Virus record (IMG/VR): IMGVR_UViG_3300023171_000010
Span: 1-64,000 of that record
Strand: one strand, 5' to 3'
Length of the DNA stretch: 64,000 bases
Source: a virus
Lineage: Duplodnaviria > Heunggongvirae > Uroviricota > Caudoviricetes
The notes under the pieces were generated by a model. The model searched no databases and was not told the DNA's origin. It worked only from the letters and a program-made list of their open reading frames with translations. This document shows, one piece after another, positions 31,235-50,298 of the stretch (position 1 is its first letter; the number at the start of each line of letters is the position of its first letter). The translations under genes were made by a program, and so were the position numbers.

Positions 31235-32626
31235 TTAGCGATTAAATGGATTTTTAGTTGAGAGGTCAGCAGTTACTAAACCACCAAGAAAATTACCAAT
31301 ATGGATTTTCTGTGCTAATGTAATGAATGAGTCACTAGTTGCATCAACTTGGTCATCCTTCACAGCGCGGGTTCCATCGAAGCCTTCCATCTCTGAGAAA
31401 TAAGCATCATTCCATGCACCGCGAACATAACGAACAAGACCCGCTTCCGATGCCGAAACTACTGGTTGAAACCGTACAACCTTAGACTTATTAGACGGGC
31501 GCATTCTTGCGAAAAGACCTTCAGAAATAAGTTCTTTAATCATCATTTGTCCAGCAGCTTTACCTGCCTGGCCCGGCTCTTGTGGAATAATGATTTGAGT
31601 ACCATCGGGGTCATCTAAGCCCGTCTCTACAATGCGCTGCATTACCTCTCCAAATCTTGCCCTAAATCGAACAACATCTAGAATGATATATAGACCTTCT
31701 TTTGTTTTACCCATTAAAACGCCAGCAGTCCAGTCAGGATTTGGCAACGCTTCACAAGGTAAACTTCCGGCAATATCCCATGCACGACAATATTGAACAA
31801 TATTTAAATCATATTCATTTACGGGCTCACCCAGCCACTCCGCTTTCCAAAATCCTGCGGCATCCTCACGAATATCCCAGTTCCCGTAAAGGTCGCGCTC
31901 CTTTTTTACGCGCTTGAGACCTTGAAGGTTTGCAAGATATCCGGGGTTGGATTTAATAAGTGGCGGATTATCGTAGATTGTGGCTGAAATAAACTGTAGG
32001 GACAGTGGACGACAATGTTGTTTTTCATCTGTGTCCGGTAAAATATTACCTTCACCGTCTCTGTTGCCATATATTTCCAGGAGTTCCTCTTTTGTGTCTG
32101 CCCAAATCATGTCACCAGCGATTCGAATAAACCAACGAACTTTACCATCCCGTTCGGGGTCGGGCCGACCTTCGTTTTCTTCTCCTTTTGGAATAATCCA
32201 CCAATCAATCCAACGTCTCAAAAAAGAATCAGGTGAAGGGTTACAAGTCAGGAAAAGATTGGGAACCATCTTTGCTTTAGAACGCAGCCGAGATAATACA
32301 ACCAGAGTATGGTCTTCGGTTATCTGAGTGGCTTCATCTATCATCGCCCCGGAAATTTGGAGGCCACGAAATTTCTCTGCATCTTCGTCAGTTTCCAAGT
32401 GAGACATGGCAATAATGGCACCACTTGGGAACGTAAAGGTCATAGCCTTTTTGTTAATTTTTACTTTAGGATCAAACGCTTTATATAAGCTGGTAGCTTC
32501 GTCAAACAAACCAGAAGCTTTCATCAAAGTTGTTTGGTTTTTACGGATAATGAATCCACGATACTGAGGATCGTCAACCCAGCGGAGATGTCGTAGCAAA
32601 CCACAATAGGACTTGCCACCACCCAT
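31235..32626 (-). CDS. terL: terminase large subunit
   Basis: N-terminal GGGKS Walker A-like motif, AMIDEAT Walker B, C-terminal nuclease-like region. Confidence 0.65.
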   Translation of the reverse strand: MGGGKSYCGLLRHLRWVDDPQYRGFIIRKNQTTLMKASGLFDEATSLYKAFDPKVKINKKAMTFTFPSGAIIAMSHLETDEDAEKFRGLQISGAMIDEATQITEDHTLVVLSRLRSKAKMVPNLFLTCNPSPDSFLRRWIDWWIIPKGEENEGRPDPERDGKVRWFIRIAGDMIWADTKEELLEIYGNRDGEGNILPDTDEKQHCRPLSLQFISATIYDNPPLIKSNPGYLANLQGLKRVKKERDLYGNWDIREDAAGFWKAEWLGEPVNEYDLNIVQYCRAWDIAGSLPCEALPNPDWTAGVLMGKTKEGLYIILDVVRFRARFGEVMQRIVETGLDDPDGTQIIIPQEPGQAGKAAGQMMIKELISEGLFARMRPSNKSKVVRFQPVVSASEAGLVRYVRGAWNDAYFSEMEGFDGTRAVKDDQVDATSDSFITLAQKIHIGNFLGGLVTADLSTKNPFNR

Positions 32627-32943: not shown

Positions 32944-33531
32944 TCATCTGGAAATTTCTTTACCATGATTTTCAGAATATCCGTACGCGACTTCCCAATC
33001 TCTTCGAGCATTTGCTGCATCTTCTAGATTTTTAAATAGACCTAAATAGTGTCTGACTCTCTTACCGTCAACAATTTCTTGACCTTCAGCTTGCCATTTA
33101 CCAGTCTTTTTATGGAAAGATACACCAACAACTCCAGAAGAATTATTACTGTATTTGGAACGGTTTCTGTGGTTAAGTTTATCAATACTAAGTTGTAAAT
33201 TAGATATTGCGTTATTTTGAGTATTTAAATCAATATGATCAATATCTTCGGACGGCCATTCACCGTTTACATAAAACCAGGCAAGGCGGTGGGCTTTATA
33301 AAGCTTTCCACAAAGGCCGATTACAATATATGGTGAAGGATTTCTCTTGGTCACTCTTGATACTGATCCCGCCTCTAAGGAAGGACTAATATTACTATAG
33401 AAGCCATTCTTACCTCTCCAATCTTTGAAGTGTGAATCTGGTCTATCCAACCTCCAAGTAAACTTTCCAGTTTCTGGATTATAAGTTAAAGCTTCTTTTA
33501 AATACTCGTGGGTAAGTAATACTTCATTCAT
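32944..33531 (-). CDS. HNH homing endonuclease with AP2 DNA-binding domain
   Basis: HRLAW...DIDHIDLNTQNNAISNLQL (HNH_3-like) plus C-terminal GVSFHKKTGKWQA...LGLFKNLEDAANARRDWE (AP2-like). Confidence 0.65.
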   Translation of the reverse strand: MNEVLLTHEYLKEALTYNPETGKFTWRLDRPDSHFKDWRGKNGFYSNISPSLEAGSVSRVTKRNPSPYIVIGLCGKLYKAHRLAWFYVNGEWPSEDIDHIDLNTQNNAISNLQLSIDKLNHRNRSKYSNNSSGVVGVSFHKKTGKWQAEGQEIVDGKRVRHYLGLFKNLEDAANARRDWEVAYGYSENHGKEISR

Positions 33532-35862: not shown

Positions 35863-36146
35863 AGTGGGGCAGCCTCGTCTGCTTTCAAATGAATCAATTA
35901 TACTAAAGAATATAATTGACTATAATAACTGGTACACCCCACAGGGAATGATCCTGAGTCATCCAGATTATGAGTCCGGCTGCTTTACCTTAAGCTAGAG
36001 GTGTTTAGAATAGGTGGAACCCCGCCAGAGGTTCCGGGTGTGGACTAGGCAGTCCGATACCAAGCCGAAGCTTAGTTAGGTTTGTAGCTGGGAGTACTCG
36101 CTCCATTTAAAGCCTACCGTTTCACACTGGCTCACTACAAATTCTT

Positions 36147-36548
36147 TTAATCTCCGTCTTGATCAGGTTCTGTATACACCAGACTCAAACGAGGCTTTAA
36201 TTCTGCTTTGATTTCAGATGGAGTCTGTTCACCAGCTTCCAGAGAATCCTTAACTTCAAACTTGAGCTTATTGTAAGAGATTTCTTCAGCATTAGCAGAT
36301 TTACTCACTGTCACAATACTATTGACAAGCCACTTACTTGAGCCAAGCTGTTCAGTGTCAATCTGTTCACCATTGATACTCTTCTTGATATTCTCAAGAG
36401 CTTTATCTTTCATTTCAAGCAACTGTTCTTCTAGGATGCGAAGCTTGCTTTTAGTGATTCGTTTGCTGTTTCCGCCAGTGGTCTTACGATTCGACTTTGG
36501 ACCGTCGAATCTTGTCGCTGGGCTAGGATTTTTATTCTTGGTAGCCAT
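36147..36548 (-). CDS. basic N-terminus / acidic C-terminus hypothetical protein
   Basis: 133 aa, Lys/Arg-rich N-terminal 40 aa. Confidence 0.4.
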   Translation of the reverse strand: MATKNKNPSPATRFDGPKSNRKTTGGNSKRITKSKLRILEEQLLEMKDKALENIKKSINGEQIDTEQLGSSKWLVNSIVTVSKSANAEEISYNKLKFEVKDSLEAGEQTPSEIKAELKPRLSLVYTEPDQDGD

Positions 36549-36805
36549 AATATTTATTCCTATGAATAAGTGATTTCTTAAGCGAACTTACCGGCTATGC
36601 CCTGTAGTATTCATAATGAAGAAGAACGCTTAAGAAAGAACACTCACTAAGCGAAGGAGAGAACGCCGCAAGTGTTCGAAAGACCTATTGGAGGAGAGAG
36701 GGACAATAGGTCTTTAAGTGCTGTCTTAGGAGAGGAAATGACAGCGTGAATACCACAATCTTTTTAGACTTACTCTTAGTGATTGTGGGTGAAACTTTTA
36801 CAATG

Positions 36806-36877
36806 TATTCGCAACAGGGGTCGAACCTGTAACCAGAAATTTAGAAGATTTCTACTCTACCATTGAGCTATGCGAAT
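36806..36877 (-). tRNA. tRNA-Arg (anticodon TCT)
   Basis: Hand-folded cloverleaf: perfect 7-bp acceptor ATTCGCA/TGCGAAT, D-arm GCTC-AATGGTA-GAGT, anticodon loop CTTCTAA, T-loop TTCGACC; no encoded CCA. Confidence 0.75.
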
Positions 36878-36880
36878 ATA

Positions 36881-36954
36881 TGGTGCCCCAGTAAAGAATC
36901 AAACTTCACTCTATTGCTTACAAGGCAATTGCATCATCACAATGCTTCAAGGGC
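36881..36954 (-). tRNA. tRNA-Thr-like (anticodon TGT), non-canonical
   Basis: 74 nt with correct arm spacing, anticodon loop CTTGTAA, encoded CCA; acceptor has one T-T mismatch and the D-loop lacks GG. Confidence 0.4.
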
Positions 36955-36959
36955 TTAAT

Positions 36960-37037
36960 TGGCTGATCCTCAGCGATTCGAACGCTGCTTCATCTTGATT
37001 AACAGTCAAGTGCCCTCACCTAGATGGCTCAGGATCA
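36960..37037 (-). tRNA. tRNA-Asn (anticodon GTT)
   Basis: 7-bp acceptor TGATCCT/AGGATCA, anticodon stem CTTGA/TCAAG with loop CTGTTAA, T-arm CAGCG-TTCGAAT-CGCTG, encoded CCA. Confidence 0.6.
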
Positions 37038-37100
37038 ATAATTGGTCTCTAACCGGTGAATTGAACACCGTCCACATCGTCCCAAACGATGCATGCTACC

Positions 37101-37188
37101 GTAACACTTGTCAGAGAATATGGCAGTGGATGTGTGATTCGAACACACGGAGCTTTTACACTCTAAGGTTTAGCAAACCTTTGCAATC
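37101..37188 (-). tRNA. tRNA-Ser (anticodon GCT), type II
   Basis: 88 nt; acceptor AGTGGAT/ATCCACT, 3-bp D-stem, anticodon loop TTGCTAA, 16-nt variable arm, T-arm GTGTG-TTCGAAT-CACAC, discriminator G, encoded CCA. Confidence 0.8.
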
Positions 37189-37216
37189 GGCCTCTCTGCC
37201 AATCCACTGCACTTGT

Positions 37217-38614
37217 TTAAAACTTATAACGGTCTTTCATTACAGCATCCATCATGACAGACTCTGGGGTCATAGACCCACTCAACAAGCTCTTCATAAT
37301 AGTTGGACTAAAGCCACTAACCAATACCGTTCCCTCAGTTCCTTTCGTTACTGGAACTGTACCAGATGAGCAGTTTACATTCCAGAATACAATCTGTGGA
37401 AGTTGATATCCTGATTCTTCATAAGCTTGTTTGAATGCCTGATAGGCTGTTACTTGATTCCCATCACGAATGCAGCTATTAAACTGCATATCTGAAACAA
37501 TCAGAAGCTTTGTGGGCATTTCATCTGCTGGAACACTATACTGTTTAGCTACACCAAGAAGGGTCGTAAAAACTGCTTGAATGTTTGTACTCATTCCCCA
37601 AGGCGCTTTCTTCAAAGCTGCAACTCGTTGTTGCAATGTACCCTCAGACCGGATTAACTGAGGTTGTTCTGAGAAAGTCATAAAGACGTTCTTAAGAACA
37701 CCAATGTTTCGTTCTGACAAATACAACCCCAATGAAACAGCGACATCCATGCAAGTAGTTTCTGACTTACTTGAAGCTCCACCTGCTTTACAACTCATAG
37801 AGCCAGATACGTCCACAATTGGGAGGAAACGTTCTGTACTGTCCTCCAAATAGTTAGGAAGGGCGTTCCACTGAGCCGAAGCAACAACTCCATCTCCATA
37901 CGCCACAGACTTAACTACATCGTAAGGATAAACAACAGAAGCATTAATCTTAGCTTCACCTGTTTCAAGTTTAGCTTTATATTCTTCGTATTCTTTCTTA
38001 GCGTTGCGACCAAATGCTTTTTGATAACGGGCGGCAGCTACAGACGGAATCTTTTCAAAATCAATTTGATCCCATTGCTTTGCACACATCTGTGTTTCAA
38101 CAACACTCGTCAACTCCACCAACATCTTACGATATTCTTTAGGTGTTTTGATTTTCATGTGTTTGCGCAAAGCAGATGCTGTGTTACCTTGACGTGGAAG
38201 CCATTTAGCACAGAGGCCGTTGTTATCAGCCAAACCTGTAGAAATTAAATCAAAGGCTTGTAGTTGGAACTTAGTTCCTTCAAATATAAGCAAATCATCC
38301 CAACGTCCAATTTCAGGAATCAACGGAATAATTTGTTCCAATACTTTATCTTGATGTTCAACAAGAACACTCAATAAGTCTTTAAACTGTTGACGCTCAC
38401 CAGCACCTTCTCGTGCATCGCGAAGCCATAGAAGTGTGCGAATAGCTACGTCTTTGTTTTCAGCCAGAGCTTTCACAAAGTCTGATTTGATATCTTTACC
38501 ACGGCTTGCCCCAGAAACATAGAAGAAATCTAGGCAAGATGACAAGCTGCTATGATGGGTAATAGCGCCATTCTCAGTTAATGCTGTGTTATTAAAAGCT
38601 TCGTACAAGTTCAT
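37217..38614 (-). CDS. vWA (MIDAS DxSxS) domain protein with helical N-terminal domain; Ro60/TROVE-like or DUF2828-like candidate
   Basis: GGAG RBS then ATG at 38614 (MNLYEAF...); C-terminal IVDVSGSMS MIDAS motif; N-terminal TENGAITHHSS..LDFFYVSGASRG loosely resembles the Ro60 N-terminal motif; the track's N-terminal extension runs into a tRNA-like element. Confidence 0.5.
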   Translation of the reverse strand: MNLYEAFNNTALTENGAITHHSSLSSCLDFFYVSGASRGKDIKSDFVKALAENKDVAIRTLLWLRDAREGAGERQQFKDLLSVLVEHQDKVLEQIIPLIPEIGRWDDLLIFEGTKFQLQAFDLISTGLADNNGLCAKWLPRQGNTASALRKHMKIKTPKEYRKMLVELTSVVETQMCAKQWDQIDFEKIPSVAAARYQKAFGRNAKKEYEEYKAKLETGEAKINASVVYPYDVVKSVAYGDGVVASAQWNALPNYLEDSTERFLPIVDVSGSMSCKAGGASSKSETTCMDVAVSLGLYLSERNIGVLKNVFMTFSEQPQLIRSEGTLQQRVAALKKAPWGMSTNIQAVFTTLLGVAKQYSVPADEMPTKLLIVSDMQFNSCIRDGNQVTAYQAFKQAYEESGYQLPQIVFWNVNCSSGTVPVTKGTEGTVLVSGFSPTIMKSLLSGSMTPESVMMDAVMKDRYKF

Positions 38615-38652
38615 AATTTTCTCCTTAAGATTAATATCAGAATCACATTTAC

Positions 38653-38711
38653 GTGCTCTACCAACTGAGCTACATGAGCCTAAACCCATGACAGGACTTG
38701 AACCTGTGACC
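38653..38711 (-). ncRNA. tRNA-like element (T-arm module followed by acceptor/D-arm module, permuted order)
   Basis: - strand reads GGTCACAGGTTCAAGTCCTGT (variable + T-arm) then a CATGGG/CTCATG hairpin then GGCTCATGTAGCTCAGTTGGTAGAGCAC (acceptor 5' + D-arm); no canonical cloverleaf can be closed. Confidence 0.35.
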
Positions 38712-38792
38712 ACGACTTTATCATAGTAGGTTTTATTGCGGTAGTGATTCTTCGTTTTGCCTATTCAGAATGTACATATCTATATGCGAGAG

Positions 38793-38920
38793 TGGATTGC
38801 TGTAGACATTCTTTGGGGCTTATCAGGCTCTACTTTACTTTTCCAATAGTTTGAGATTGCTGTAGAGAGCCTTTAAATTTCTTTCTTAGGAGTAGTATAC
38901 ACTATAAATCTTGGATTGCA
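38793..38920. repeat. three GATTGC-core repeats phased at about 60 bp
   Basis: TGGATTGCTGTAGA at 38793, GATTGCTGTAGA at 38855, TGGATTGCAAGC at 38912; spacings 60 and 59 bp. Confidence 0.4.
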
Positions 38921-38940
38921 AGCTTTTAATAAAATATATT

Positions 38941-39015
38941 TGGAGCGGATAGGGAATTTCGAAATCCCGACGAACAGCTTGGAAGGCTGACACTCTGCCT
39001 CTGAGTTATACCCGC
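38941..39015 (-). tRNA. tRNA-Gly-like (anticodon TCC), non-canonical T-stem
   Basis: 75 nt; acceptor GCGGGTA/TATCCGC, D-arm ACTC-AGAGGCA-GAGT, anticodon loop CTTCCAA, canonical T-loop TTCGAAA but T-T at 53:61, encoded CCA. Confidence 0.4.
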
Positions 39016-43705: not shown

Positions 43706-44491
43706 ATGGGTGCGAAAGAGCGCAACTTTTTAACTGTTGTGGATGGTCAAGAGATTGCCGTCCCAAGAAAAAGAACCAAAAGCACTAGGAACGGAGGAGT
43801 GAAGCCAGAAGTTAAAGAGAAGTTCGTAGCATTCGCATCAAAACGTGACCCACTTGTTGCAATGAATGGTCGTCAACAAGAATATATTAATGCTGTACAG
43901 AATACCAGTTTTGTGATCTGTATTGGAGTTTGGGGTTCAAGTAAATCTTTTATCCCTTCCACAATTGCTGCTGATATGTTAATGGATAAAAAAGTTGATC
44001 GTATCATAATTGCACGGCCTGCTGAGGGTAAAGGTAAGTCTATCGGATTTCTTAAAGGGGGTAAGGATGAGAAACTTCAGCCTTGGTGCGCGCCGATCAC
44101 AGATACTATTAAAGCTCGTGTAGGTCAAGGCAACTATGAAGCTTTTCTTGCTAACGGTAAAATTGAAATGTTGGCCTTGGAGCACGTAAAAGGCCGTAGT
44201 TGGGATAATGCATTCATCATTGTAGATGAAGCTGAAGACCTTGAACCAGAAGTTGCTAAGAGCTTGGTTGGGCGGCAAGGGGTTAACAGTAAATGCATCG
44301 TTACGGGTGATATTGCACAACAGGATTTGAAAAAGAACTCTGGTCTACAATATATTCTTGATGTTGCAAGATTTTCTAATCTTCCAGTGGAATTGATTGA
44401 TTTTGATTCTTGGGATTACTGTGTACGATCTGAAGAGGCTAAAATGTGGGGGATGGCTTTTGACGCATTTGACAAAAAGGAGAGTAAATAA
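43706..44491 (+). CDS. phoH: PhoH-like ATPase
   Basis: GVWGSSKS P-loop variant, IIVDEAEDL Walker B, PhoH-like C-terminal region. Confidence 0.6.
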   Translation: MGAKERNFLTVVDGQEIAVPRKRTKSTRNGGVKPEVKEKFVAFASKRDPLVAMNGRQQEYINAVQNTSFVICIGVWGSSKSFIPSTIAADMLMDKKVDRIIIARPAEGKGKSIGFLKGGKDEKLQPWCAPITDTIKARVGQGNYEAFLANGKIEMLALEHVKGRSWDNAFIIVDEAEDLEPEVAKSLVGRQGVNSKCIVTGDIAQQDLKKNSGLQYILDVARFSNLPVELIDFDSWDYCVRSEEAKMWGMAFDAFDKKESK

Positions 44492-44492
44492 T

Positions 44493-45278
44493 ATGAGTGA
44501 AGAAAGTTTTATCCCAATGTTCCCACCACAGAATGTCTTTACAACAGAAGTACGTGGTCAACAGCATACTTACTATCTTACTGGTCCTATTACAGAGCCG
44601 GAAAATTACGTAAGCCTATGCAACACTCTTCGCACCAGTGGCCCACAGGACGAGGTGATTATTCGTATCAATAGTAGAGGTGGTGCAGTATCATCTGAAC
44701 GAATGATCATCAATGCAATTCAAGAATCTCAAGCTAACGTAGTTGGATTTATTGAATACGACTGTATGAGCGCTGCAACAGGGGTATTTTTGGCGTGTAA
44801 ACAACATGATTGGGCAGATCATATCCAGTTTATGGCCCATTGTGCGTTTTGGGGATCTATCGGTAAGAATCCTGATGTGAAATCCCAGACTGAATTTGGT
44901 ATTAAACAACTGGAGGAGGAAATCACCTCAACATATAAGGGCCTGTTAAATGATGATGAAATCCTCTTGTGTAATGATGGTAAGGAATTCTGGTTTGGTG
45001 CAAAAGAGCTTGAACGGCGCATGGAAGGTTTCTATGAATATCGGAACTCACAGCCTTGCAATTGTGGCGACGAAAGCTGTCCTCGCAATCAGAGCTTGAC
45101 TCTAGAAGAAAACGAAGAAGATTTCCCAGAGTTCAATCTAGAAGAAATCATTGAGAAAGCTGTAGAAGCTGGTGTGAAGAAGGCTCTTGCTGCACGGGAT
45201 GCTAAGGAGAAGAAGTTGTCCAAAGCTAAATCTCCACAACCAGCTATGCAACCCGAAGGTTTTGACATTATTAATTAA
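44493..45278 (+). CDS. ClpP-like (S14-fold) protease homolog
   Basis: AAGGAGAG RBS; ClpP-like core NSRGGAVSSERMIINAIQ...DCMSAATGVFLAC...HIQFMAH; acidic C-terminal tail. Confidence 0.5.
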   Translation: MSEESFIPMFPPQNVFTTEVRGQQHTYYLTGPITEPENYVSLCNTLRTSGPQDEVIIRINSRGGAVSSERMIINAIQESQANVVGFIEYDCMSAATGVFLACKQHDWADHIQFMAHCAFWGSIGKNPDVKSQTEFGIKQLEEEITSTYKGLLNDDEILLCNDGKEFWFGAKELERRMEGFYEYRNSQPCNCGDESCPRNQSLTLEENEEDFPEFNLEEIIEKAVEAGVKKALAARDAKEKKLSKAKSPQPAMQPEGFDIIN

Positions 45279-45289
45279 AGGAGATTGAA

Positions 45290-45505
45290 ATGGATATTGA
45301 AGAGCAAGTAAACAAAGTTTTATTTGAAATAATCAAAGAGAATAAGATCCCATATACGCAGGAAGGTATTGATAATCTACTAGAACTGACGTATGAAAAA
45401 CTTGGTCCTGTCTCTTACGAAATAAAGATTCACCCATTGACAGAAATCTCTCCTGATGATATTGCACAACGTAGATTGCCCAAGATTGAAGTAATTGTAA
45501 AATAA
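45290..45505 (+). CDS. hypothetical protein
   Basis: 71 aa, AAGGAG RBS. Confidence 0.4.
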   Translation: MDIEEQVNKVLFEIIKENKIPYTQEGIDNLLELTYEKLGPVSYEIKIHPLTEISPDDIAQRRLPKIEVIVK

Positions 45506-45566
45506 TTGTTGACTGAAACAATCTGTCGGCTTACAATAGCGACAGATTAACTAAAGGAGATTAAAT

Positions 45567-45761
45567 ATGGAATGGTTAATTGGTTTTGCTATGGGTATAG
45601 CTATTACACTGACATCGATGTATATAACGCTTGATCAAAATACTGTTGCAGTGTTGACTGATACCTGCGTATCCAATAAAGGTTTAGAGACGGCTGTTGT
45701 AGACACAGACTCATACAAGATTACTTGTAAAGATTCTGCTGTATTTAAAGTTAAAAAGTGA
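45567..45761 (+). CDS. small membrane protein
   Basis: 64 aa, one TM helix, AAGGAG RBS. Confidence 0.35.
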   Translation: MEWLIGFAMGIAITLTSMYITLDQNTVAVLTDTCVSNKGLETAVVDTDSYKITCKDSAVFKVKK

Positions 45762-45905
45762 GGAGACTAAAATGACCCTAAATGATATGGCAACAGAGCT
45801 TGGTGATGAAATGGAGGATTACTTGGTTTTGAACGATCATGACTTCGAAACAGACTCATCTTGGAGGATGGAACTCGATCTAGAATATGCTCAAGGGGAT
45901 TTTCA

Positions 45906-46199
45906 ATGACCGAAAAGAAACCTAAAGATATCGAAGTGGTGGTTGTCTCATTCACCGACTACACCTCATACGACTTCGTTGAACCTGGAAGTTTCTTTTC
46001 AATGAGTGCTATGCAAGACTATTATTTCTATAAGACAAGTGATAGGAAGTTGGCTCAGGATAAGTGTGATGAAATCTTTGGACCAAACCGTTATGTTGTG
46101 AAGACATCTAAGAACATTGTAAGCAAGTCGAAGCTGGAATCTGGAGGTCTATCAGCAACAGGCACTTCTTGTCGAAAAGGGCAGAAGGCCCCAAATTAA
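45906..46199 (+). CDS. hypothetical protein
   Basis: Start at internal ATG (MTEKKPKD...) after GGGG. Confidence 0.35.
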   Translation: MTEKKPKDIEVVVVSFTDYTSYDFVEPGSFFSMSAMQDYYFYKTSDRKLAQDKCDEIFGPNRYVVKTSKNIVSKSKLESGGLSATGTSCRKGQKAPN

Positions 46200-46211
46200 G
46201 AGGAAGAATAT

Positions 46212-46559
46212 ATGAATGACTTCAGTAGTATGGACTTAGCAGTTGATAAGTTATGTCAAAGTATGAAAAACACACCTGAACAGTGGACAATATCAACATA
46301 CCATGTTGATCACAAAATCTCAGGTATAAAATACTGGTTTGGTCTTACAGACACGATTACAGAGATTTGGAATGGTGACTCACGGGAAGAAGTCTTCAGT
46401 AGAGAGCAAGGCGATAAACTTTATTCAGCTATGATAGCAATGAAACAGAAGAATGGAAGTGAAGATCAGAAGAAAATTATTAACTCCATCTGCGTTGTAG
46501 ATATTTTAGAGGATAAAGTTGAAGCTAAAGAGAGTTGGTGGAGAAATATTTTCAATTAG
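46212..46559 (+). CDS. hypothetical protein
   Basis: 115 aa. Confidence 0.45.
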   Translation: MNDFSSMDLAVDKLCQSMKNTPEQWTISTYHVDHKISGIKYWFGLTDTITEIWNGDSREEVFSREQGDKLYSAMIAMKQKNGSEDQKKIINSICVVDILEDKVEAKESWWRNIFN

Positions 46560-46606
46560 CATTTTCAACAGATTATTTATTAAATTATCGTTTTAAAGGA
46601 GAGATT

Positions 46607-46825
46607 ATGATTTACGATATTGTTTACAAAGAGCAAGATCAGATGTTTCACATGGATGGTAAGGCTGAAACCTTCATTGGTAATCATCTAGAAAATATTT
46701 CTCGTGAACTTCGTATTAAAGAAGTGGATGATTGCTTGTCAGAGAGCCATATGCTGGCTGTACTGGAATCTAAAGGTATTATTGTGAATCTTCTTGAGGA
46801 AGATGGTTCTCGGATGGATTGGTAA
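46607..46825 (+). CDS. hypothetical protein
   Basis: AAGGAGAG RBS then ATG at 46607 (MIYDIVYKE...). Confidence 0.4.
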   Translation: MIYDIVYKEQDQMFHMDGKAETFIGNHLENISRELRIKEVDDCLSESHMLAVLESKGIIVNLLEEDGSRMDW

Positions 46826-46963
46826 ATGAAGGAGAAGTATGCTTTAGCACTAATGGATATGACCTGTAGATTTGGAGAAACCTCAGAGGCACAAAGATTA
46901 AAAGTTGGTGCAATGATCTATAAGAATGACTCTTGTATAAGCCTTGAGTTAAATCAAATATAA
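46826..46963 (+). pseudogene. 5' remnant of dCMP deaminase gene (duplicated N-terminus)
   Basis: 45 aa MKEKYALALMDMTCRFGETSEAQRLKVGAMIYKND... parallels the N-terminus of the intact deaminase at 47469 (AERLKVGAIAYKNG) and stops before the active-site motifs. Confidence 0.4.
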
Positions 46964-46975
46964 TCAGGAGAAAGC

Positions 46976-47479
46976 ATGACAGTTACACACAGAATGTCAG
47001 AAACAAAAGTTTATTTTGTTTGGTGGGATATGAAACGTAGATGTAATGCAGAGGACAGACCAACTTATGAAAACTACGGAGGTCGGGGTATTAGTTATCA
47101 AGATTCTTGGGATAAGTTTGAAGGCTTTTGGTCAGATATGGGGGACTCTTTCAAAGAAGGTTTGACTCTAGAAAGAAAAGATGTCAATGGAAACTATTGC
47201 AAAGAAAACTGTGAGTGGATACCTTTAGCGGAACAAGCTAAAAATAAAAGGGCTTACAAAAATAATAGTGTTGGGTTAGGGGGCTGCTGTTTGTTTCCAA
47301 GCCGAGGAAGACTTTATCTAAGGGCAAGGATTCAAGATTCTGAAACAAAGAAGAGAGTTAATAAACTTTTTAATTTAGCAAAAATTGATATTTCCGAGGC
47401 ATTAGTTCTTGCTGAAGAATGGTTGAAAGTTACTCGCCTGAAAATGGGCTACAAAGAGGGACACGGAAGTGAAGGATAA
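46976..47479 (+). CDS. freestanding homing-endonuclease-like protein (WxxMxxRC...YENYGGRGI family)
   Basis: 167 aa; this motif is recalled from phage proteins annotated as HNH/AP2 homing endonucleases; lies between the deaminase remnant and the intact deaminase. Confidence 0.45.
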   Translation: MTVTHRMSETKVYFVWWDMKRRCNAEDRPTYENYGGRGISYQDSWDKFEGFWSDMGDSFKEGLTLERKDVNGNYCKENCEWIPLAEQAKNKRAYKNNSVGLGGCCLFPSRGRLYLRARIQDSETKKRVNKLFNLAKIDISEALVLAEEWLKVTRLKMGYKEGHGSEG

Positions 47480-47873
47480 ACATATCCAGGCATGTATGAA
47501 ATGTGCCGAAGCTTGGGCTGATTGTTCTTCAGCAGAACGTCTTAAGGTGGGGGCGATTGCTTACAAGAATGGGCACATTATCGCAGAGGGTTATAATGGA
47601 CTACCAGTAGGAATGCGGGGGTCTTGTGAGGATGCCCATGGTAATACTAAAACTGAAGTTACTCATGCCGAAGATAATTTGCTGAGGAAGTTGACTCGGA
47701 GCACAGAAAGTAGTGTTGGAGCTTTTATCTTCATAACCCATGCCGCATGTAAAAGTTGCTCAATTAAAATTGTTGACGCAGGAATCACTAAAGTTTATTA
47801 TCGTAATGAATATCGTAGCACAGAGGGGCTTGACTACCTTCGTGCAAACAATATAGAAGTAATCAAAATTTAA
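47469..47873 (+). CDS. dCMP deaminase (CDA fold)
   Basis: HAEDN and PCKSC zinc-binding motifs; GTG start overlapping the upstream gene. Confidence 0.6.
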   Translation: MKDKHIQACMKCAEAWADCSSAERLKVGAIAYKNGHIIAEGYNGLPVGMRGSCEDAHGNTKTEVTHAEDNLLRKLTRSTESSVGAFIFITHAACKSCSIKIVDAGITKVYYRNEYRSTEGLDYLRANNIEVIKI

Positions 47874-47885
47874 AGGAGAACCTAG

Positions 47886-48296
47886 ATGACAGCTACAGAA
47901 AATATCCTTCTACCAGAAGAAATCATTGACACATATAAGCTTCAATTTAAATCCTTAACAGAGTTCATGCGTGGACTTAATTATGAATATGAAGGTCGTC
48001 TATTCGGTTCACCACACTTCGTAAGCTATGATTACGAGAATAAGGCTCGTAAGAGTATTTCTGTGCACACAGCTTGTCTTTTGCACAATGGCGCCTATAC
48101 CGACTGGCATGGTAAAGGCTTCAAAGCACCTTTTGACTTCAGCCACTATAAAATCCGTAAAGCTAAAGCTGCCAAGATTGTAAATATTGTGAACATCCAA
48201 TTGAACAAGAAAACTGGACACATCCGCACTACAAGCAATCTTGTAAACTTTGTAGACAAGGCTTATGAATACATGCTTTATTCTAAATATCTGTAA
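47886..48296 (+). CDS. hypothetical protein
   Basis: 136 aa, AAGGAGAA RBS. Confidence 0.45.
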   Translation: MTATENILLPEEIIDTYKLQFKSLTEFMRGLNYEYEGRLFGSPHFVSYDYENKARKSISVHTACLLHNGAYTDWHGKGFKAPFDFSHYKIRKAKAAKIVNIVNIQLNKKTGHIRTTSNLVNFVDKAYEYMLYSKYL

Positions 48297-48305
48297 GGAG
48301 TATTT

Positions 48306-48503
48306 ATGTCTAGGGATCGTATCTACGTGTTTCAAAATGCATGGTGCTGGGCCTGTGAGTACAGTGTTGCCACTCACAGTAAATTTGGAAAGTATCAGGA
48401 AGTAGTATTAGGCTTCGGATGGAATGACCGTGAAGTAAGTGAGATGGTTTGTAGCTTACTTGAGGAAAATAGTCTTGAACTATTCTGTGAGACAAATCAA
48501 TAG
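48306..48503 (+). CDS. hypothetical protein
   Basis: 65 aa, AAGGAG RBS. Confidence 0.35.
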   Translation: MSRDRIYVFQNAWCWACEYSVATHSKFGKYQEVVLGFGWNDREVSEMVCSLLEENSLELFCETNQ

Positions 48504-48512
48504 AAATTTATA

Positions 48513-48547
48513 GAGCAGCTAGTCCTTGAGATTGGCTGCTCTTTTTG
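48513..48547 (+). terminator. rho-independent terminator
   Basis: GAGCAGC...GCTGCTC 7-bp stem followed by TTTTTGTT. Confidence 0.5.
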
Positions 48548-48584
48548 TTAATATGGATTTATAAATTAAATGGGAGGCTTTTGA

Positions 48585-48776
48585 GTGAACAAACAACAGC
48601 TAGAGAAACAAATGAAATTACTTCATAAAGAACTTTGCTCTGTAGACAAACGTTGCAAGCGCATAGCCAAAGCTTGTGACATTCCACCAAATGATATTAT
48701 TTCATGGGCTGTACAACAGACAGAGGAAGTATTACAGTACATTGAAGCGCTGAAGGAGAAAGATAATGTTTCTTAA
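48585..48776 (+). CDS. hypothetical protein
   Basis: 63 aa, GGGAGG RBS. Confidence 0.4.
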   Translation: MNKQQLEKQMKLLHKELCSVDKRCKRIAKACDIPPNDIISWAVQQTEEVLQYIEALKEKDNVS

Positions 48777-49431
48777 GAAGTTTGAACAGAACACACAAGG
48801 TAAGGACTATGTTGTTGGGGACATTCACGGCTGTTTTACTAAGCTTAAACTAGCTTTAGAACAAATAGGATTTGATGAGAAAGTTGACCGACTATTCAGC
48901 GTAGGTGATTTAGTTGACCGTGGACCTGAATCAGAAGAGTTTTGGGATTGGCTGCGCAAGTCTTGGTTTCACTCTGTGCGGGGTAATCACGAGCAAATGG
49001 TTATTGACTCTGTAGAGGCAGGTAATGAGAGTAATGCTTGCGGAAATCATGCAATCAACGGTGGACTATGGCTTTACGGGCTACCTCTTGTAGAGCAACA
49101 GTGCTATACTCTTGAGATGAAAGAGCTTCCTATTGCTATTGAGGTTGAAACCAAGGATGGTTTAATTGGTATCATTCATGCAGAATGTCCTCTTGGTGAT
49201 TGGGATCTTTTTAAGTCGATGTACGAGGCAAATAAGGACAGATTCGAAGCTGTAAGCATGTGGGCACGTACAAAGATTGAACACAAAGATAAAAGTCTTG
49301 TAAAAGGTCTTCATAAGCTGTATGTTGGTCATACTCCGATGAATGAGAGTGAAGAATTAGGGAATGTTGTTTATACTGACACGGGAGCTTGTTTCAGAGG
49401 TGGTAAGTTTACAATTCTACAAATTAACTAA
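48766..49431 (+). CDS. Ser/Thr protein phosphatase (lambda PPase-like metallophosphoesterase)
   Basis: GDIHG, GDLVDRG and GNHE motifs. Confidence 0.65.
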   Translation: MFLKKFEQNTQGKDYVVGDIHGCFTKLKLALEQIGFDEKVDRLFSVGDLVDRGPESEEFWDWLRKSWFHSVRGNHEQMVIDSVEAGNESNACGNHAINGGLWLYGLPLVEQQCYTLEMKELPIAIEVETKDGLIGIIHAECPLGDWDLFKSMYEANKDRFEAVSMWARTKIEHKDKSLVKGLHKLYVGHTPMNESEELGNVVYTDTGACFRGGKFTILQIN

Positions 49432-49465
49432 GTCTCGCTGAGGAAGCCCCTCAAGGACAAACCAA

Positions 49466-49750
49466 ATGAACAATTCTTCTGTAAAGCTTATCCTGACAAT
49501 ATCTTTGACTGTTGTGATAACAGGCTGTACAATTGCCCCGCCAAAGCAGAATGTTATCATCACATCGCCAATGTATAACAAATGGCATGATGCTGTGTTC
49601 AAGGAATGTCAATCTAAAGCTTGGGATGTTACACGAGAGCTTGTGATTGAGAAGTCTAAGGAAGGGTATAGCTTTACAGAAGAAACAGTTAGGGATATTC
49701 ATAGCTATCTTGTTAAGAAATGTTCTATGAATAGCGGTATCACCATATAA
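49466..49750 (+). CDS. small lipoprotein
   Basis: Signal peptide with lipobox VITGC. Confidence 0.45.
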   Translation: MNNSSVKLILTISLTVVITGCTIAPPKQNVIITSPMYNKWHDAVFKECQSKAWDVTRELVIEKSKEGYSFTEETVRDIHSYLVKKCSMNSGITI

Positions 49751-49953
49751 GGATTAGAAATGAAAAACACTACAGATTTATACTTTTTTAGAAATTGCAG
49801 AAAGTACCTAGAGCTGTCCCTTGCTAATTTAAAAGCTACTGGCAAGCTTAGTAAAATTGAACAGCAGCTAGAGTTTATGATTGATGGATTAGATGAATAT
49901 ATTAGTCTAAAAATCGATGAAGATGAATTACAGAGTCGATATGGAGATTTGAA

Positions 49954-50298
49954 ATGACACACCTAGTGCCAATAACTGAACAACAAAGGGAAGAAATTAA
50001 ACAGAAGCGTATAGAGGCTCAAGAATATGCCAAGGCTAATCTGAAGCTAGATTACGCTGACTCTGGATACTGGTCCGAAATTGCTTCAAAATATAAGCTA
50101 ACCATGCCGCATTGGTACATCCCAGCATCAGCTACAAAGTACATGCGTCGAGCTTGCAAGAAGACTGGAGTAGATATGGAGGCGTTTATCGAGTCAACGG
50201 GTTTTACTAATCTAAATCAGCTTGTAAATGCTAATCCTACATGGACTGCGGCAGCTATGGTGGGGTTAGTGCTTGAATTTTCGCAGCAAAATGCATAG
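49954..50298 (+). CDS. hypothetical protein
   Basis: 114 aa. Confidence 0.45.
   Translation: MTHLVPITEQQREEIKQKRIEAQEYAKANLKLDYADSGYWSEIASKYKLTMPHWYIPASATKYMRRACKKTGVDMEAFIESTGFTNLNQLVNANPTWTAAAMVGLVLEFSQQNA

Follow-up and report, generated by a model that had tools for sequence, protein, structure and literature searches.

The locus described here surrounds a dCMP deaminase gene in a tailed phage (Caudoviricetes; IMG/VR record IMGVR_UViG_3300023171_000010, positions 1 to 64,000), and "the window" denotes this whole 64,000-nucleotide (nt) stretch, to which all coordinates refer. Three consecutive open reading frames (ORFs) lie on its + strand at 46826-46963, 46976-47479, and 47469-47873: a 45-codon stub resembling the beginning of a dCMP deaminase, a free-standing gene for a 167-amino-acid (aa) endonuclease-like protein, and a complete dCMP deaminase gene of 134 codons with a GTG start. 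The initial annotation had placed the ORFs at these same coordinates and had read them as a deaminase-like fragment, an endonuclease gene, and an intact deaminase gene, which our searches confirm (stub versus downstream deaminase, BLASTP E 1e-8; stub versus PHROG 174, dCMP deaminase, E 2.7e-4; downstream product versus PF00383, E 1.3e-14). The stub appears to be what remains of a resident deaminase allele that was displaced, probably by a cassette composed of the endonuclease gene and a different deaminase allele.

The ATG of the stub directly follows the TAA (TAAATG) of a backbone gene at 46607-46825 (+) that encodes a 72-aa protein with no function assigned and 28 homologues, and whose relatives have a deaminase gene directly 3'. 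The endonuclease ORF is preceded by AGGAG at 46966-46970, and the GTG start of the deaminase gene overlaps the endonuclease stop by 11 nt. A DUF7390 backbone gene follows at 47886-48296 (+; PF24116, E 4e-22), and this gene is also the downstream neighbor of the deaminase gene in the empty-site relative described below. Since no fewer than four different samples (ENA ERZ27228644, Logan SRR7963979, Logan SRR7968057, and JGI 3300023096) yielded contigs with the identical arrangement, an assembly artefact is ruled out; exact-sequence look-ups with the window's own proteins gave identical arrangements only.

The product of 47469-47873 (+) is a dCMP/cytidine deaminase by its match to PF00383 (54 bits against a cut-off of 25, residues 6-111) and to PHROG 174 (E 9e-42). 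Of the two zinc motifs named in the initial annotation, HAE(DN) is present as described and PCKSC is not, as Ala occupies the usual Pro position (ACKSC). All deaminases of the same allele type, referred to here as A-type, carry A/C-C-x-x-C (HAACKSC, HAACKNC, HACCFAC; window residues 92-97) instead of the canonical P-C-x-x-C, and the B-type alleles retain an SPCLNC zinc motif. At the protein level the downstream deaminase is 92%, 90%, and 71% identical to those of the related loci L001, L003, and L002, respectively, and the ratio of nonsynonymous to synonymous substitution rates (dN/dS) for the A-type gene is 0.038.

The stub, the empty site, and the imported block

Relatives of the locus were found via the 72-aa neighbor and via IMG/VR, and they belong to a group of ~88-kb tailed phages whose portal proteins are 45-53% identical to Pseudomonas phage portals. 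The locus is hypervariable in this group, with at least five deaminase allele types that share 25-50% identity with one another: A-type (the window's full gene, L001, L002, and L003), B-type (L021, L079-85, and L088), C-type (L018-20 and L022), D-type (L016 and L023), and E-type (L015). A different endonuclease gene (L016:3219-3818; 199 aa, PF13392 HNH_3) lies between the 72-aa gene and the D-type deaminase gene of L016 as a clean insertion with no relic, for which L023 is the matching empty site, and the junction of the 72-aa and deaminase genes is therefore a spot that has been invaded repeatedly. At L017:3200-3721, a gene of the dCTP deaminase/dUTPase fold (PF22769 DCD) stands in the place of the dCMP deaminase gene, a non-orthologous swap at the same position.

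The stub itself has no Pfam match and lacks the HAE and CxxC zinc-binding motifs, its homology to deaminases being limited to residues 1-41. The initial annotation had followed this homology to codon 35 only, and it in fact runs to about codon 40-41 (...SCISL), after which the ORF continues to a stop at 46961-46963. Extending the homology past 46946 by means of indels (AGTTAA... versus GGAGTTAAT...) was rejected as unparsimonious. The N-termini of the stub and the downstream deaminase are clearly homologous as proteins (18/45 identical in the BLASTP alignment), and it is this similarity that speaks for the origin proposed in the initial annotation, namely, that the stub is a duplicated 5' fragment of the downstream gene, produced as the endonuclease gene entered, whether through target duplication or through gene conversion. 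That annotation had also suggested comparing the two sequences at the nucleotide level, and here the protein similarity stood while the duplication did not. Between the stub and the downstream gene's 5' end, 55/114 nt (48%) and ~45% of the amino acids are identical, with synonymous sites saturated (proportion of synonymous differences, pS, 0.91), whereas the stub matches the intact B-type gene of L088 (L088:2720-2833) at 106/114 nt (93%), with all eight differences synonymous, and L079 at 41/41 aa through ...SCISL. Because of this disparity in nucleotide identity, and with flanks that match an empty site carrying a B-type gene, the stub is not a duplicate, and an origin by duplication is very improbable. 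Judged from its sequence, it is an inactive 5' relic of the resident B-type allele rather than a copy of its neighbor.

We give even less credence, indeed almost none, to an intron, an intein, or a gene in pieces with the stub as exon 1 or N-terminal piece. Phage endonuclease genes do often reside within introns or split genes (PMC2988022), but an Rfam scan of 44000-50000 found no match at E up to 1, the stub is closed by a stop codon, and the downstream gene, besides a start codon of its own, has a complete N-terminus, so that the stub overlaps it in the alignment rather than complementing it. The initial annotation had likewise dismissed an intron on the grounds that the downstream gene is complete.

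The empty site is found in L088, in which the 72-aa gene, an intact gene for a 135-aa B-type deaminase, the DUF7390 gene, and p65 follow one another with the same TAA-ATG abutment as in the window; the stop of the 72-aa gene abuts the deaminase start in L015, L018-20, and L023 as well. The initial annotation had recommended comparison with endonuclease-free relatives for setting the bounds of the insertion, and L088 supplied both junctions. The window is colinear with L088 (91% over 46586-46939 and 88% over 47856-48581), and between these segments L088:2834-3109 (B-type codons 39-130) is replaced by window positions 46940-47855, ~910 nt. With the L079/L081 subtype as the reference, B-type nucleotide homology extends to 46946, and the relic thus delimited occupies 46826-46946 (+), ~40 codons.

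On the right, the junction falls in a 26-nt block common to A-type and B-type alleles (47856-47881, +; GAAGTAATCAAAATTTAAAGGAGAAC), which runs from the last five codons through the stop to the ribosome-binding site (RBS) of the next gene. To the left of this block the window follows A-type loci, and to the right it follows the B-type backbone: homology to B-type backbones (L088, L079, L021, and L081) resumes at 47856, and homology to the A-type loci L001 and L003 ends at 47881. The DUF7390 protein is 89-98% identical to those of L021, L081, L016, and L023 (B and D backbones) but only ~35% identical to that of L001.

On the left, the filler at 46947-46975 (+), which contains the RBS AGGAG of the endonuclease gene, has no counterpart in any B-type allele. 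The homology of L086/L087 to the window begins at 46959, and the filler AAATATAATCAGGAGAAAGC resembles the tail of the p106 gene of L001 AAGTATAACTAGGGTGGGATT. From this resemblance, the filler is probably the last ~25 nt of a p97-like gene that lay upstream in the donor, together with the endonuclease RBS. When the 36-nt and 69-nt junction fillers were compared with all loci by blastn-short, only the L086 filler was assigned, to the tail of a p97-like gene. The shared reading frame of the stub and the endonuclease ORF in the window was judged coincidental, as the frames differ in L086.

The endonuclease gene and the A-type deaminase gene occur with the same 11-nt overlap in L001 and L086/L087. 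In L001 the pair directly follows a p97-like gene with no stub, and in L003 the A-type gene directly follows a p97-like gene without the 167-aa ORF; L002 likewise has an A-type gene and no endonuclease gene. The endonuclease gene is thus polymorphic in its presence, being found in L001 and not in L003, and in the window and not in L088. The A-type deaminase accompanies it in three backbones, and the imported block in the window is bounded by 46947 and by 47856-47881. This pattern of co-inheritance indicates that the two genes are mobile as one cassette. The G+C content of the imported block (0.395) is no different from that of its flanks.

The endonuclease family and the recurrence of the relic

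The 167-aa protein (46976-47479, +) has no Pfam match and matches PHROG families annotated "HNH endonuclease" or "restriction endonuclease" (E 1e-30 to 1e-33). The search of a large protein database recovered 215 homologues, many with C-terminal AP2 (PF00847), NUMOD1, or I-HmuI-type modules, and more than 530 relatives were found in IMG/VR; the family is carried by 825 INPHARED records, mostly annotated "hypothetical protein." An AlphaFold model (predicted local distance difference test score, pLDDT, 88.8) has two domains, one N-terminal and largely helical with a beta-hairpin and a helix, the other C-terminal with a three-stranded sheet packed against a helix. The family profile matches the HNH motif of I-HmuI weakly (E 0.32), pairing GLTLERKDVNGNYCKENCEW with GLVVDHKDGNKDNNLSTNLRW. 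At the Asn/His metal-ligand positions, conservation is complete for N78 and at least 90% for N71 and N90. Taken together, the alignments and the model lead us to predict an HNH-derived protein, with a beta-beta-alpha domain in which Arg replaces the catalytic His, followed by an AP2-like DNA-binding domain at the C-terminus. The family consensus also includes an N-terminal segment of ~60 aa with CxC...SCGC, a zinc-ribbon. The endonuclease gene is under strong purifying selection (dN/dS 0.046 versus L086, with dS >1).

At the nucleotide level, megablast of 45500-49500 against INPHARED phages gave no match, and blastn with the same 4-kb query gave short matches only, in the endonuclease core and the phosphoesterase gene. 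The former (47134-47271) is 75.5% identical over 138 nt to genes of SPO1-like Bacillus phages (Goe9, Goe10, SPO1L3, and SPO1L5) annotated "hypothetical protein," and these phages matched no other part of the query; the latter, a 110-nt stretch, matched three Pseudomonas phage records. In L020, two ORFs (705-1196 and 1534-2202) lie between the C-type deaminase and DUF7390 genes, that is, downstream of the deaminase gene and not upstream, and 705-1196 and 1750-2079, the latter being the second half of the other ORF, are 41-43% identical to the N-terminal domain of the window endonuclease.

Relics of displaced deaminase alleles occur beside two further endonuclease genes. In L086/L087 the endonuclease is 92% identical to that of the window, and upstream of it lies a B-type relic of a different subtype, MKDKYAQALMDMAIRFGETSTAERLKV followed by V and a stop. 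The stretch that separates this relic from the endonuclease gene is the 3' end of a p97-like gene and finishes with ...RGSNTRKCFSPRLKGLK and a stop; for comparison, the upstream gene of L085 ends in ...TGTNTRKCFSPRLKGLK and a stop. By its sequence, the left junction of L086 joins codon 28 of the recipient deaminase gene to the donor p97 tail, and this tail therefore points to a donor order of the L001 type, with the p97-like gene, the endonuclease gene, and the A-type deaminase gene in succession. The overlapping contigs L024/L025 carry a more distant endonuclease (53% identical to the window's), and the order there is an E-type-like relic, MIDNKWHNRFMELAEHVAQWSRDPSTKVGAVIVRPDKSVASV followed by NSLVAIF and a stop, then the endonuclease gene, and then a full B-like deaminase gene. 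The relics are 28 (L086), 41 (window), and 41 (L025) codons long, and in a joint alignment the window relic (...SCISL) and the L025 relic (...KSVASV) end in the same column, directly before the G of the conserved GxNG motif. The probability of two of three uniform breakpoints sharing one codon is ~0.026.

No scar was found at deaminase genes that lack an endonuclease gene (L003, L015, L018-23, L079-85, and L088). Genes whose products match the endonuclease over its full length, C-terminal domain included, immediately precede a dCMP deaminase gene in 6/6 contexts (the window, L086/87, L001, L024/25, L090, and L091), and none of the remaining 135 loci screened (59 + 76), nearly all of them matches to the N-terminal domain only, is near a deaminase gene. 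These observations bear out the view in the initial annotation that the stub is a footprint of endonuclease-associated recombination in the 5' region of a deaminase gene.

A separate question is why the stub has been retained, and here it may be asked whether it is useful, for instance, as a leader ORF that keeps the native promoter, RBS, and translational coupling (TAAATG) and feeds ribosomes to the endonuclease start. This idea concerns the retention of the stub rather than its origin and is compatible with displacement of the B-type allele. The start context of the stub is identical to that of the intact L088 gene, its frame is open with no nonsynonymous differences from L088, and 12 nt, among them AGGAG, separate its stop from the endonuclease ATG. 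However, selection before the event can explain the absence of nonsynonymous differences, the three relics are unlike in both length and sequence, and a relic is entirely absent from L001, L090, and L091, which belong to the same clade, making a leader function improbable.

An arrangement of a related kind is present in the Acinetobacter phage Phab24 (L169, MZ477002: 56376-57197), in which an endonuclease of the same family, 46% identical, follows ThyX. The endonuclease copy is split there into a zinc-ribbon ORF and a core ORF, annotated only as hypothetical. Next comes, overlapping it by 11 nt, a 44-aa remnant of the ThyX C-terminus annotated "thymidylate synthase." Phab24 thus carries an analogous scar in a cultured phage, which suggests that such relics are common and under-annotated.

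A proposed route of allele replacement

The explanation that we consider probable is that the resident B-type deaminase gene was displaced by a cassette of the endonuclease gene and an A-type deaminase gene from a co-infecting relative, with the stub left behind, through intronless homing completed by one-sided illegitimate break repair. The donor would have had the order p97-like gene, endonuclease gene, A-type deaminase gene. Its endonuclease would have introduced a break into the resident B-type gene at codon ~41 or immediately 3' of it, in the sequence encoding the GxNG motif, and the right end would then have been resected to the sole usable homology, the 26-nt 3' block and the downstream DUF7390 gene. 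From there, the right end could have invaded the donor and primed leftward copying, first through the A-type gene, then through the endonuclease gene, and on for a few tens of nucleotides into the gene that lay upstream in the donor, and the copied strand would finally have been joined to the barely resected left end. This last joining would have been illegitimate because the left side offered no homology, the recipient having the 72-aa gene there. The product would be the order observed, namely, the 72-aa gene, the B-type relic, the donor tail, the endonuclease gene, and a complete A-type deaminase gene. What the sequences show is the empty site, the two junctions, the mosaic ancestry of the segments, the repeated occurrence of the scar, and the purifying selection acting on the endonuclease gene; we infer that the 167-aa protein may have made the break and that the cut position and repair pathway may have been as outlined.

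The same outcome might have been reached without cleavage by the endonuclease, if ordinary illegitimate or short-homology recombination between co-infecting phages replaced the allele and the endonuclease gene hitch-hiked through its linkage to the A-type allele. The character of the locus lends itself to such shuffling, given its hypervariability, its five allele types, the dCTP deaminase gene in L017, and its variable small ORFs; moreover, the right junction falls in a short conserved block, a type of sequence that mediates module shuffling, and the catalytic His is absent from the putative nuclease. Nevertheless, three independent scars each lie immediately upstream of endonuclease genes of the same clade, for two of them the end falls in one and the same codon column, the clade is associated with deaminase genes in every one of its contexts, and no scar was seen at the endonuclease-free deaminase genes examined. 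In light of this evidence, we regard endonuclease-independent shuffling as rather unlikely.

Displacement by a homing cassette must itself be weighed against several observations that do not fit it comfortably. At the position of the catalytic His in the D-H-K-D motif of I-HmuI, the 167-aa protein has Arg67, which is invariant in 58 homologues, and because the catalytic His is replaced by an invariant Arg, nuclease activity is not to be assumed from homology. The zinc-ribbon is missing from the window copy as well as from L001 and L086, and it is kept in the clade members P0032, P0033, P0035, and L024. The coincidence of breakpoints comes from three events only (P ~0.03), and the break in L086 lies 13 codons earlier. 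The alleles linked to the homing endonuclease gene (HEG) also encode GxNG (GYNG in the carrier), and the immunity of the carrier allele is left unexplained. In addition, the window's 29-nt filler is too short for firm assignment, and the true donor is unsampled, since among the relatives sampled the imported block reaches only ~80% nucleotide identity.

A broader reading, which we put forward tentatively and with the balance tilted slightly against it, is that this endonuclease clade constitutes a dedicated homing system for dCMP deaminase genes. Such a system would cut at the sequence encoding GxNG, a universally conserved motif, and could therefore attack alleles that are otherwise only 25-50% identical; it would swap whole alleles by one-sided repair, because recipients of this kind offer no upstream homology; the ends of the relics would then record the cut site. 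If this is true, the cut sites of uncharacterized endonucleases may be readable from natural scars in metagenomes.

Genomic surroundings and relation to known systems

Some further features of the window and negative search results complete the description. A scan for promoters and terminators over 45700-48400 yielded nothing above shuffled expectation. The IMG/VR scan with the 72-aa protein gave no match, and the 45-aa stub gave no candidate in the large database, whose word index is not suited to so short a query. Between the p97-like and 72-aa genes lies a 115-aa ORF (46212-46559) that is variable among relatives, L021 having an unrelated 135-aa ORF at this position and L088, L016, and L023 having nothing. 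A second, unrelated homing-endonuclease-like gene (32944-33531, -; 195 aa; PF13392 HNH_3 and a weak PF00847 AP2 match) adjoins the large terminase gene (31235-32626). Seven tRNA genes (Met, Arg, Thr, Asn, Pro, Ser, and Gly) form a cluster at 35930-39015 (-), and within it lies a DUF7788/DUF2828 gene for a 498-aa protein (37217-38713).

The locus has several implications. It provides a clean natural record of the event, in which an empty site and the two junctions are accompanied by two independent repeats. It also points to a selfish endonuclease gene replacing an entire, highly diverged metabolic allele rather than converting a few markers, and it may show one-sided illegitimate break repair, known from T4 laboratory constructs, operating in wild phage populations. 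The proposed mechanism carries the prediction of a cut site at the GxNG codons of dCMP deaminase genes, for an endonuclease family that is widespread, biochemically uncharacterized, and without the canonical HNH histidine. For annotation, the implication is that short ORFs labeled "deaminase-like" or "thymidylate synthase" beside endonuclease genes are better treated as relics of displaced alleles and not as genes.

Intronless homing by free-standing phage endonucleases was reportedly described by Belle et al. in 2002. Several such enzymes are established in T4, with SegF at gene 56, SegG at gene 32, and MobE at nrdB, and they drag neighboring genes along with them (PMC2988022). The window endonuclease gene resembles these in lying between genes as a promoter-less cassette that overlaps its neighbor, in being polymorphic in its presence among relatives, and in having carried along an adjacent nucleotide-metabolism gene, as in co-conversion and localized marker exclusion. 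It differs in that the alleles exchanged are only ~50% identical and the whole gene was swapped instead of a few markers, in that one junction is non-homologous and left a relic, and in that the putative enzyme belongs to another family.

For the repair step, the closest parallel is one-sided homing of the T4 td intron, in which illegitimate double-strand-break repair at microhomologies was demonstrated experimentally (Parker, Belisle and Belfort 1999, summarized in PMC2988022). There, as at the left junctions of the window, L086, and L025, only one side has homology, and on the other the junction forms with little or no microhomology after limited degradation. The td work, however, was done in an engineered laboratory system with an intron-encoded GIY-YIG enzyme, whereas the events considered here are natural ones that we infer from three metagenomic phage scars. 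For ICP1 and further phages, Barth et al. 2023 (PMC10448857) described HEG islands and nuclease genes at recombination boundaries, and the window endonuclease gene likewise sits exactly at an ancestry boundary and carries a neighboring cargo gene. Unlike the window, that study describes no relics of the displaced allele, and its enzymes are T5orf172, GIY-YIG, and HNH proteins with CapR-type domains.

In its predicted modular architecture, where an AP2-type DNA-binding domain follows a nuclease-like beta-beta-alpha core, the 167-aa protein resembles the HNH-AP2 and PacI-like/I-HmuI-like phage HNH endonucleases (PF13392 + PF00847; PDB 1u3e and 3m7k), and the family motif L-x-L-E-R-K-D-x-N-G-N-Y-x-x-x-N-C-x-W aligns with V-D-H-K-D-G-N-x-x-N-N-x-x-x-N-L-x-W of I-HmuI. 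The ThyX region of Phab24 (MZ477002) shares with the window the endonuclease family, the position beside a nucleotide-metabolism gene, and the 11-nt overlap; it is unlike the window in that its target is ThyX and not a deaminase gene, its remnant is a 3' piece, and its endonuclease gene is split into two ORFs. Viewed against these systems, a free-standing homing-endonuclease cassette with co-converted cargo is an already known kind of event, and it is unusually well documented at this locus.

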